A stretch of 64,000 nt of DNA from Minisyncoccota bacterium. GTDB lineage: Bacteria; Patescibacteriota; Minisyncoccia; Phycocordibacterales; UBA9973. The notes beneath the pieces were generated by a model. The model ran no database searches, was not told the origin of the DNA, and saw only the letters and a list, made by a program, of their open reading frames with translations. A program made the translations under genes and the position numbers. Of this stretch, positions 53,330 through 54,634 are shown piece after piece (positions within the stretch are counted from its first letter, which is position 1; each line of letters begins with the position of its first letter). The stretch is from NCBI GenBank assembly GCA_035353995.1, contig DAOQAL010000001.1:70867-134866 (forward strand), written 5' to 3'.

Positions 53330-54094
53330 TTATTTATTATTTAATAATTTTATATAATTTTCGTTTAGACCCCCGAGTCTAAATATAATTCCTGTTTTAA
53401 TATTATTCACTTTCATAAAATCTATATCATTTTTAAGTGACTCAATAGAAAGAATTGGCTCATCCCCAAGTACTCCTACTGCAATAGTTCCTAAGCCAAG
53501 CTGTAAATTTGGGTTAAGTTTTCTTACTTTAGTAATTTCATTTCTTATTAATTTTAATTTTAATTTATTAGAGATCATGCTTGTGTAATACATAATACAT
53601 TGTGTATGTTTATATTTTTTAACATTAAAAGAAATACCAAGCAGACGATATATTAAATTAATACCAATAAAGAATGGTGGGTATTCTGCTGTCACAATAT
53701 TTATATTGTGACTTAGTGCTTCTTGAAAGAATTTTTTTATAATCTTTTTATTCTTCCAAAAAGAGAAAAAGTTTTTGAAATATAATTCTTTATGTTTCAT
53801 TAGAGGAAGTTCAAGATCTATTAATACAGTAAGAGGTTCATTAATTGAAAAAATTTCTTTTATAAAATTTTGTAAATCTTTCGTGTTAGAAAATGGAGAA
53901 ATCCAATATGAATTTGGAATTATTGGCCAATATGCAGTAGAGATATTTGAATTAATTGAGGTAAGTAATTTTTTATTTTCTTTGTATTCATTAAAAGAAT
54001 TTGCAGTAAGAAAAATAGTTGATTTAAAATCAATTAATTTAGCTTTTTCTAGATTTTCAAAAGTCGGGTATTCTTCAAAGAAATTAAATCTCAT
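53330..54094 (-). CDS. Hypothetical protein
   Basis: Start placed at the internal MRFNFFEEYP. The 49 codons upstream in the listed ORF (to 54241) look non-coding (C/H/R-rich). Confidence 0.4.
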   Translation of the reverse strand: MRFNFFEEYPTFENLEKAKLIDFKSTIFLTANSFNEYKENKKLLTSINSNISTAYWPIIPNSYWISPFSNTKDLQNFIKEIFSINEPLTVLIDLELPLMKHKELYFKNFFSFWKNKKIIKKFFQEALSHNINIVTAEYPPFFIGINLIYRLLGISFNVKKYKHTQCIMYYTSMISNKLKLKLIRNEITKVRKLNPNLQLGLGTIAVGVLGDEPILSIESLKNDIDFMKVNNIKTGIIFRLGGLNENYIKLLNNK

Positions 54095-54344
54095 GAATGT
54101 ATTATATACGATATTGTAGAAATAGATTACATCTAGTGCCAGCACGGCTTTGTGGAGGCGGTGAGAACACGAGTACGTTTTTCTCCCTCGACTAAATTTT
54201 TTGTCGACACAAAAAATTTGTCTGGTCACCGACTCATACATTTTTTCTACTGAAAAAATGATATTCCGTCGTTCTCATCTCACACGAAAGCCAAGCAGTT
54301 GGCTTTCTCGCCTCCGCAAAGCTTTTGCTTCGCGAAAACCTTTG

Positions 54345-54429
54345 CGGAGGCGGTGAGATTCGAACTCACGGTGCCTTGCGACACTCCGGTTTTCAAGACC
54401 GGTGCACTAAACCACTATGCGACGCCTCC
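54345..54429 (-). tRNA. tRNA-Ser (anticodon TGA), long variable arm
   Basis: Acceptor GGAGGCG/CGCCTCC. Anticodon stem CCGGT/ACCGG, loop CTTGAAA. Variable arm GAGTGTCGCAAGGCACC. T-arm GTGAG-TTCGAAT-CTCAC. Discriminator G. Confidence 0.8.
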
Positions 54430-54506
54430 TTTATTATCTTTAATTTTTCTCGAACATTACTTTTTAGTATATATACACTATAATTCATATGAGATTATGT
54501 GTTTTT

Positions 54507-54552
54507 ACTAAACCACTACCCCGAAGGGGCCCCCTAGGGGTGCGACGCCTCC
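54507..54552. repeat. Partial duplicate of the tRNA-Ser 5' end (24 nt in two 12-nt blocks) interrupted by a 22-nt GC-rich palindromic insert
   Basis: 54507-54518 equals 54406-54417, and 54541-54552 equals 54418-54429. Between them lies CCCCGAAGGGGCCCCCTAGGGG at 54519-54540. Confidence 0.6.
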
Positions 54553-54602
54553 GTATATCAAACACTACTTTATTTTTAGCTTTTTTTCAAGGGCTGTAAA
54601 TT

Positions 54603-54630
54603 AAAATACCCCGACATGCGGGGCATTTTA
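54603..54630. terminator. Rho-independent terminator for the 54635-54880 minus-strand gene
   Basis: CCCCG-ACATG-CGGGG hairpin with a T-rich tract on the minus strand. Confidence 0.5.
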
Positions 54631-54634
54631 ATTT

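Follow-up and report, generated by a model that had tools for sequence, protein, structure and literature searches.

A probable relic of a small tRNA-resident GIY-YIG nuclease element upstream of a patescibacterial tRNA-Ser gene

We analysed a stretch of 64,000 nucleotides (nt) of contig DAOQAL010000001.1 (assembly GCA_035353995.1, Minisyncoccota bacterium), here called the window, in which the first 24 nt of a transfer RNA (tRNA) gene, tRNA-Ser(UGA), recur upstream of the gene as a fragment split by a GC-rich insert. We consider it highly probable that in positions 54430-54552 of the window the left part of a small selfish element survives in decayed form, an element that resides in tRNA genes and is built around a stand-alone GIY-YIG nuclease gene of about 85 amino acids (aa), of the Slx1/UPF0213 type. 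Elements of this kind are widespread in Patescibacteria and Bacteroidota.

Results and discussion

A split copy of the tRNA-Ser 5' end

Read in the tRNA sense, the order upstream of tRNA-Ser is GGAGGCGTCGCA, CCCCTAGGGGGCCCCTTCGGGG and TAGTGGTTTAGT, followed by 77 nt and by the tRNA itself, which starts GGAGGCGTCGCATAGTGGTTTAGT (Table 1). The original prediction had described two exact 12-nt blocks here, and a repeat search recovers both, with 24/24 nt of the tRNA 5' end identical in them. It had also singled out the 22-nt insert as conspicuous in AT-rich DNA. The window has a GC content of 27-35 % and the insert CCCCGAAGGGGCCCCCTAGGGG is the sole match to itself in the 64 kilobases (kb) with up to 3 mismatches allowed, while 0/100 shuffles yield one; a relaxed pattern, CCCCNNNGGGGCCCCNNNGGGG, likewise gives a single match in the window. 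In the earlier parse of the insert one detail needs mending, its second half being CCCCCTAGGGG with four G rather than five. The structure backed by the comparative data presented below consists, in the tRNA sense, of two 11-nt units, CCCC-TAG-GGGG and CCCC-TTC-GGGG.

Two other assemblies match the locus without any difference over 551 nt, and a third does so over its available 298 nt (the assemblies compared being the NCBI metagenome-assembled genome (MAG) GCA_964524305.1, JGI 3300009694 and Logan SRR4236661). Since three independent assemblies agree in sequence, the locus is real DNA and not an assembly artefact; they have the protein context in common as well. Only one of the ten tRNAs of the window, tRNA-Ser(UGA), has an upstream copy of its own first 12 nt.

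We ruled out a split, permuted or intron-containing tRNA, whether with a group I or an archaeal bulge-helix-bulge intron, and also an RNA resembling transfer-messenger RNA: the interrupted copy stops at nt 24, the host is bacterial (RuvX/YqgF, PilM), and ARAGORN and Rfam call only the tRNA at the locus, with no intron match.

An intact nuclease gene in the closest relative

The closest relative found (locus L001; surveyed loci are cited by such numbers) has a neighbour protein 92 % identical to the 254-aa protein downstream of the window tRNA. Upstream of this homologue lies tRNA-Ser(GGA), a different tRNA-Ser from that of the window, and about 290 nt further upstream stand GGAGGGTTCGCA, CCCCAAAGGGGCCCCGTTGGGG and TAGCGGTC, which are the 5' end of its own tRNA, split. 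The insert CCCCAAAGGGGCCCCGTTGGGG has the split site and architecture of the window insert with other loops. Between fragment and tRNA there is an intact open reading frame (ORF) of 84 aa that corresponds to the GIY-YIG catalytic domain (Pfam E = 3e-19). Its final codons, GGA GGG TTC GCA TAG, are nt 1-15 of the tRNA, the stop codon being the TAG of the D-loop. The arrangement of fragment and insert found in the window is shared by L001, L013, L014, L015, L020 and L101, and in all of them the insert sits between nt 12 and 13. Synteny via the downstream 254-aa protein was abandoned as a guide, since this protein has graded homologues whose neighbours differ in nearly every relative; L001 alone was informative.

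Judged from these alignments, the 77-nt spacer of the window is a deleted copy of the small GIY-YIG gene. It contains ATG AAT TAT AGT GTA TAT ATA CTA AAA AGT AAT GTT CGA GAA AAA TTA AAG ATA ATA AA, translated as MNYSVYILKSNVREKLKII, which is the N-terminus of the family (M.Y.VYILKS; the first ~13 codons) fused to a C-terminal EKLKIIK. Aligned as DNA with L001 and L013-L015, the spacer lacks about 200 nt that include the catalytic core. The best window match of family members, by tblastn and a hidden Markov model (HMM), is 54488-54435 with an E of about 0.01-0.03, weak because the remnant is very short. The frame into the tRNA is shifted, an ORF of ~85 aa ending in the D-loop TAG is not present, and no intact nuclease copy was found elsewhere in the 64-kb window. 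With its ORF reduced to a remnant and its frame shifted, the window copy is therefore a relic and not a functional member of the family.

A family of nuclease genes nested at tRNA genes

We define the family from L001, L008-L087, L101 and L113. A scan of one genome per species yielded more than 568 relatives, of which 80 loci were fetched. More than 130 homologues of ~85 aa were found, mostly in Patescibacteria. In the aligned set the C-termini are mostly GGVA, GGFA, GEVA or alike, which is what the 5' end of tRNA-Ser encodes. A co-oriented tRNA starts between -20 and +130 nt from the end of the ORF at 67/80 loci (Arg 29, Ser 24, then Glu, Met, Tyr, Asn, Gln, Leu and Lys); the tRNA lies immediately upstream of the ORF instead at 7/80, and neither arrangement is seen at 6/80. 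Related ORFs adjoin tRNA-Ser with GGA, UGA, CGA and GCU anticodons as well as Tyr, Asn, Pro, Arg, Met and other tRNAs.

At about 45 loci the 5' part of the tRNA, from nt 1 on, recurs exactly or nearly so upstream of the ORF, and GC-rich hairpin inserts break up nearly all of these copies. A GC-rich hairpin (at least 60 % GC, folding free energy dG <= -8, within 130 nt upstream of the ORF) is present at 63 of the 67 loci, compared to 112 of 417 control windows (27 %) of the same loci. Rfam recognised nothing but tRNAs in the upstream-copy regions of the surveyed loci.

The intact layout on the tRNA strand is an exact tRNA 5' copy of 20-45 nt with one or more GC-rich hairpin inserts, the ORF, and a complete tRNA. 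The ORF starts 0-20 nt after the fragment, and the first nucleotides of the tRNA encode the last residues of the ORF, with the D-loop TAG as stop. As the end of the ORF is encoded by the complete tRNA that follows it, the element brings a replacement 5' end, the function of the tRNA is kept, and the original end is the dead fragment upstream.

Several variants of this layout occur. Tandem arrays repeat a unit made of tRNA nt 1-22, hairpin, tRNA nt 23-43 and ORF; arrays of up to five small GIY-YIG ORFs are found in L069 (a Bacteroidales MAG, 67-1731) and also in L053, L062 and L063. Every ORF of L053 and L063 has a hairpin-split tRNA fragment of its own in front of it. The mirror layout, with an intact tRNA, an ORF and then a hairpin-riddled tRNA copy, is found in L071, L075, L083 and L042. 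In L061 a full-length tRNA copy with a single hairpin is followed by an intact copy.

ARAGORN and Rfam call tRNAs on some hairpin-interrupted copies, namely a 95-nt 'tRNA-Arg' with an apparent intron in L061 (1394-1488) and a 'tRNA-???' in L033 (379-471); these calls are likely annotation artefacts that inflate tRNA counts. In L011 (1400-2010) the tRNA that comes next, Ser-CGA, is not the one from which the fragment before the ORF (GGAGAGGTCGCATAG..) is copied; this fragment matches a 3' tRNA piece further downstream (..GGTTCGAATCCCTCCCTCTCCGCCA), and from this order a resident tRNA appears to have been split with another tRNA inside it. A Flavo-1 RNA (Rfam RF01705, 47 bits) at 688-828 on the minus strand of L045, about 600 nt upstream of the Flavobacterium ranwuense element, is probably unrelated.

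We looked for signs of recent movement and recovered no filled and empty pair at one orthologous tRNA among related loci; the proteins P0181 and P0164, looked up for identical copies at other loci, each occur at one locus. A scan of a metagenome collection, which did not include the contig of the window itself, for the pattern GGAGGCGTCGCA-N(1-30)-TAGTGGTNNA gave 15 matches, of which 14 are chance matches in GC-rich contigs and only L101 is genuine.

GC-rich hairpins specific to nuclease clades

We aligned 17 distinct inserts of 22 nt, taken from elements at Ser, Tyr and Pro tRNAs. Under a model of two independent hairpins of 4 base pairs (bp) each, 99.3 % of the cells are paired and 0/500 shuffles attain the score; as some inserts were chosen by eye, the percentage paired is biased, and the compensatory changes are not. 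Such changes are seen in 5/8 pairs (CCCC/GGGG, ACCC/GGGT, CCCT/AGGG, TCCC/GGGA, AGCC/GGCT and GCCC/GGGC). A single long hairpin of 9 bp for the 22-mer was rejected, scoring no better than shuffles. The window insert fits this covarying form of the Patescibacteria Ser clade, a 22-nt double mini-hairpin that reads NCCC-NNN-GGGN twice. The covariation is strong. The RNA fold of the window fragment alone is of ordinary stability (z = -0.03); the support for the hairpins is comparative and not thermodynamic.

In Bacteroidota and allied genomes the typical insert is a perfect 20-nt palindrome, CCTGCCTGCCGGCAGGCAGG, mostly located between nt 21 and 22 (..GGATA / GAGC..). In ~240 kb of loci, 39/39 palindromes of the form CCTGCC...GGCAGG lie inside tRNA-derived copies. 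The type of hairpin tracks nuclease clade and phylogeny, not host or tRNA type: a parcubacterial tRNA-Asn locus (L079) has a CCTGCC palindrome together with a protein that clusters with those of Bacteroidota. Orthologous tRNA-Arg loci of Flavobacterium differ in a 20-nt palindrome at nt 12/13, which L048 and L084 have and L045, L049, L056, L076 and L040 lack, and the palindrome at nt 22/23 measures 16, 20 or 24 nt; the flanking tRNA-derived bases are unaltered. Several hairpins share one pseudo-copy in L009, L028, L075, L101 and L113.

The idea that hairpins insert in tRNA loops only was dropped, several Ser-clade inserts being at nt 10/11, inside the D-stem. We also compared G-U with A-C mismatches in decayed CCTGCC palindromes as an indication of the strand under selection; the few cases, examined by eye, gave a mixed picture.

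The comparisons show the hairpin to be an integral, clade-specific part of the element, apparently selected to fold in single-stranded nucleic acid. An independent mobile mini-palindrome, a 22-nt double hairpin comparable to the GC clusters of yeast mitochondria or the double-hairpin elements of Allomyces that landed in a dead tRNA fragment and has no connection with the nuclease, would be hairpin-forming and GC-rich in an AT-rich genome and would insert cleanly, all of which is observed; the precise gain and loss of the 20-nt palindrome between Flavobacterium species and the gathering of multiple hairpins in single pseudo-copies would suit it too. We nevertheless regard it as very unlikely. 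The insert is not dispersed, with a single copy in the 64 kb, every CCTGCC-type palindrome of the related loci is in a tRNA-derived copy beside a GIY-YIG gene, hairpin type follows nuclease clade across phyla, and the AG target duplications seen with yeast clusters (PMC4478555) are absent. The earlier suggestion of a tRNA pseudogene struck by a tiny GC-rich hairpin thus survives in part: hairpins do come and go precisely in such fragments, but a constant, clade-specific nuclease companion is not the result of a chance strike.

Concerning the role of the hairpin within the element, our first preference is that it would ruin the nuclease site in the displaced copy. Second, it may interrupt a direct repeat of 24-45 nt through which recombination would otherwise delete the ORF, and third, a structure-specific nuclease may recognise it in cis. 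It may also serve as a leader structure in the messenger RNA. It is possible, if on balance doubtful, that the hairpins, rather than being passive scars, act in cis as the cognate partner of a nuclease that is minimal, structure-specific and Slx1-like, the two forming a mobile system that would colonise tRNA genes across phyla, rebuild the gene it enters and insert clade-specific hairpins, cleanly and without target duplication, into every redundant tRNA-like copy. If true, this would represent an unrecognised class of bacterial mobile elements and a hairpin-directed DNA transaction by a GIY-YIG enzyme.

A homing-like mechanism

The family profile matches UPF0213 proteins best (BH0048, 1zg2, E = 2e-12; EF2693, 1ywl, 9e-10), then SLX1 (~1e-6), and I-TevI at just 8e-3. 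This order places the family in the minimal stand-alone Slx1-like branch of GIY-YIG proteins described by Dunin-Horkawicz et al. (PMC1564403).

Most likely, as far as we can infer from the arrangement of these loci, the element is homing-like, entering tRNA genes and restoring them. The nuclease would nick or cut the DNA of a tRNA gene in the D-arm region, and repair would copy the element from a filled allele, with conserved tRNA sequence on both sides acting as portable homology arms. Copying through such arms would account for the spread over Ser isoacceptors and other tRNAs, for the tandem arrays and for the identity of fragment and tRNA. Transcription would presumably start from the old tRNA promoter, and the fragment and hairpins would be the 5' leader of a nuclease-tRNA co-transcript. 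SegB of phage T4, which as a homing enzyme of the GIY-YIG type recognises a motif conserved in tRNAs (PMC2330249), is a precedent.

Several points weigh against this reading. At the protein level the match of the window remnant is weak alone and leans on position and alignment. The nuclease is assigned by domain homology, and its 85-aa catalytic domain comes with no obvious DNA-binding module that would give sequence specificity. The main difficulty is that the rebuilt tRNA is identical to the naive target, and simple immunity by site disruption fails to explain why it is not recut. One has to assume that the enzyme nicks, that its expression is very low or that some other protection exists; we favour an enzyme that nicks or is very weakly expressed. 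Intron endonucleases that nick their own genome too are known, I-HmuI being one. Finally, target-specific tRNA sequence lies to either side of the hairpin, and the inheritance of the hairpin together with the ORF across tRNA types is therefore not explained by a simple one-piece cassette.

The perfect identity of fragment and tRNA and the covarying hairpins suggest constraint in a single-stranded molecule, and could also be marks of a leader that benefits the host. The tRNA 5' copy and hairpins would then be cis-regulatory (a decoy, an attenuator or a processing signal) for the tRNA or for a co-transcribed housekeeping UPF0213 nuclease, and nothing would be selfish. The fragment directly follows a promoter-like site, fragment and hairpins of the window are intact despite the loss of the ORF, and the overlap of ORF stop and tRNA would couple expression to RNase P processing. 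We find such a leader improbable given the patchy distribution, even among the close relatives of the window, the arrays of up to five ORFs, and the use of many tRNA types by one protein clade. The decayed, hairpin-riddled pseudo-copies on either side of tRNAs, the presence and absence of hairpins at orthologous loci, and the restriction of the arrangement to a single window tRNA argue in the same direction. The regulatory decoy offered as an alternative in the original prediction finds no support. A conserved leader duplication without hallmarks of mobile elements, which would have spoken against the original prediction, is not the pattern seen in relatives. We thus retain the homing-like element as our preferred reading.

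The downstream side of the tRNA and its neighbourhood

The original prediction had missed a partial 3' duplicate of tRNA-Ser, in which 54148-54166 equal 54340-54358 at 18/19 positions. It belongs to a second, hairpin-rich pseudo-copy that starts thirty-one nt past the tRNA with GGAGGCG (acceptor 5' strand) at 54315-54309. There follow the hairpin GAAAGCCAA-CTGC-TTGGCTTTC, GTGAG (T-stem 5' strand), ~110 nt of AT-rich palindromes and, at 54166-54148, TCTCAC CGCCTCC A CAAAG. The copy thus keeps acceptor and T-stem strands and the CAAAG trailer around an interior of three palindromic hairpins, and its RNA fold has a z of -6.7, with 0/200 shuffles equally stable. Analogous 3' fragments, some around a second GIY-YIG ORF, are found in L010, L026, L028, L050, L059, L075 and L113. 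No GIY-YIG remnant was recognisable in the 172 nt between tRNA-Ser and the 3' fragment; we take the copy to be what probably remains of a former insertion on the 3' side.

The 19-nt repeat resembles an attachment (att) site in spanning the tRNA 3' end and trailer, and tRNA genes are classical sites of integration. One could therefore see in the locus the scar of site-specific integration at the tRNA, or else a plain local duplication by replication slippage. We give these explanations hardly any credence. Pfam scans of three flanking products (the nuclease of L001, the 254-aa protein and the 81-aa DUF5652 protein) revealed no recombinase, and the upstream repeat is of the 5' end, the wrong one for an att duplication; the combination that marks an att island, a recombinase gene next to the tRNA and a 3' direct repeat, is not found for the 5' feature. 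Two exact 12-nt blocks within 150 nt are unexpected by chance, and the architecture split by a hairpin and joined to a nuclease ORF recurs in dozens of unrelated genomes. The original prediction of a scar left by an element in, or recombined with, tRNA-Ser therefore stands in so far as relatives hold an intact nuclease gene where the window has its 77-nt remnant, and falls as regards an integrase. Since the element is not an integrase-type island, looking for an integrase nearby, as had been advised, misses the point.

Table 1 Features of the tRNA-Ser locus in the window
Feature	Position	Strand	Evidence or remark
tRNA-Ser(UGA), intact	54344-54429	-	ARAGORN and Rfam tRNA (62.1 bits)
Displaced fragment, left half: tRNA-Ser nt 1-12 (GGAGGCGTCGCA)	54541-54552	-	exact 12/12 repeat of 54418-54429
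Displaced fragment, right half: tRNA-Ser nt 13-24 (TAGTGGTTTAGT)	54507-54518	-	exact 12/12 repeat of 54406-54417
GC-rich insert of 22 nt, between tRNA nt 12 and 13 of the fragment	54519-54540	-	CCCCGAAGGGGCCCCCTAGGGG on the + strand
Nuclease-gene remnant (77-nt spacer)	54430-54506	-	ATG at 54488; reads MNYSVYILKSNVREKLKI...
Promoter-like site directly upstream of the displaced fragment	54572-54600	-	consensus scan: TTTACA, 17 nt, AAAAAT, 9/12 matches
Second tRNA-Ser-derived pseudo-copy, hairpin-rich	54147-54322 (up to 54343)	-	19-nt repeat, 95 % identity; 14-nt closing helix
Inverted repeat: tRNA 3' acceptor strand and CAAAG trailer with downstream GCTTTGCGGAGGCG	54309-54352	-	18-nt arms, 94 % complementary

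The tRNA-Ser of the window (54344-54352) has no encoded CCA (..CGCCTCCG CAAAG), and the downstream 3' fragment likewise reads CGCCTCCACAAAG; the genes of several relatives (L001, L013 and L014 being compared) encode CCA (..CCTCCGCCA). The 3' end of tRNA-Ser and its trailer may have been replaced together. A locus with insertions on both sides is L113 (JGI 3300035047, 1286-2420), at a tRNA-Ser(GGA): a fragment that is old and decayed, another that holds two double hairpins (among them CCCCCTAGGGGG, as in the window), an ORF and the intact tRNA are followed by 3' tRNA fragments nested about a further GIY-YIG ORF, which belongs to another clade, making it a hotspot of 5'- and 3'-side insertions.

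The promoter-like site at 54572-54600, which was recognised by consensus alone, may be the original tRNA promoter; the region has 6 such sites compared to 4.3 expected, which is no excess. An inverted repeat of 16 nt (AAATTAAAATACCCCG / CGGGGCATTTTAATTT, 54598-54634), similar to a bidirectional terminator, follows the DUF5652 gene and parts it from this site. The neighbours of the locus in the window are the 81-aa DUF5652 protein and the 254-aa protein, the latter of a family widespread in Patescibacteria and without Pfam domain; other genes are RuvX/YqgF- and sigma-factor-like. A mechanical ORF of 303 aa at 53330-54241 on the minus strand, also called with 303 aa in the NCBI MAG (L088), passes through the tRNA-derived pseudo-copy. 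With homologues of 254-256 aa and a JGI call of 254 aa, the true start is the ATG near 54094 and the longer call is an artefact of the relic.

Significance and comparison with known systems

In Patescibacteria and Bacteroidota, small stand-alone GIY-YIG (UPF0213) proteins make up some of the most frequent 'nuclease family protein' annotations, and no role has been assigned to them. Starting from the relic in the window we arrived at one consistent genomic grammar that covers hundreds of these proteins: a displaced tRNA 5' piece with its cognate hairpin, an overlapping nuclease ORF and a rebuilt tRNA. For annotation, this means that the 303-aa ORF and 'intron-containing' tRNA calls are artefacts of such relics. 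If homing-like, the elements would explain the partial tRNA genes, tRNAs annotated with introns and tandem nuclease arrays in these genomes, and would show universally conserved tRNA sequence in use as portable homology arms, with cultured Flavobacterium as an experimentally accessible system. How a minimal GIY-YIG domain is targeted and what GC-rich mini-palindromes do become testable questions. Searches of the open-access full-text literature turned up no account of tRNA genes at which small GIY-YIG/UPF0213 genes are nested together with tRNA fragments split by hairpins, and the literature searched gives no link of stand-alone Slx1-like/UPF0213 proteins to tRNA genes, tRNA fragments or palindromic inserts.

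The elements invite comparison with fungal mitochondrial ORFs at gene ends, in which an endonuclease ORF inserts together with a replacement gene end and the old end becomes a pseudogene. The atp6-orf360 element of Allomyces is reportedly of this kind, a mobile endonuclease ORF that brings a replacement gene end and leaves the displaced end as a pseudogene. Fungal mitochondria are also said to contain short, GC-rich double-hairpin elements (DHEs), those of Paquin, Laforest and Lang. Like DHEs and the GC clusters of yeast mitochondria, the hairpins described here are structurally constrained and GC-rich in AT-rich genomes, and mobilisation by an endonuclease is suspected for the organellar ones. 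DHEs and GC clusters, however, are organellar and dispersed in many copies with AG target duplications (PMC4478555 for the GC-rich yeast clusters), whereas the hairpins here are confined to tRNA-derived copies beside a nuclease gene, cleanly inserted and clade-specific. Nor do they resemble dispersed GC palindromic repeats at large, including repetitive extragenic palindromes (REP) and bacterial interspersed mosaic elements (BIME), since the window, the part of the genome that was searched, holds a single copy.

Insertions in the ribosomal RNA (rRNA) genes of bacteria belonging to the candidate phyla radiation (CPR) affect highly conserved structural RNA genes in the same phylum, often at the tops or bases of stem-loops; some have GIY-YIG ORFs outside recognisable introns, and many are short and ORF-less (PMC11270868). 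They interrupt the rRNA gene itself and need removal or tolerance, whereas at the present loci an intact tRNA is restored and it is a dead duplicate that is interrupted; that study does not deal with tRNA genes. Integrative elements at att sites share the tRNA gene as landing site and its restoration by the element, but they have a tyrosine or serine recombinase, duplicate the 3' end and show element-sized spacing, none of which is true of the 5' feature described here.

BH0048 and EF2693, the UPF0213 proteins that give the best profile matches, share with the family a minimal domain free of auxiliary domains (PMC1564403). SegB of T4 is likewise a GIY-YIG gene among tRNA genes; its site holds a conserved tRNA motif, the T-psi-C stem-loop, and it furthers the inheritance of itself and of neighbouring tRNA genes (PMC2330249). 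SegB is a larger, multi-domain phage enzyme for which no partial tRNA duplication, ORF-tRNA overlap or hairpin insert is described, whereas the proteins here are chromosomal catalytic domains of ~85 aa, nearer to Slx1/UPF0213 and found in Patescibacteria and Bacteroidota. Taken together, the family looks like an undescribed variant of homing-type elements.

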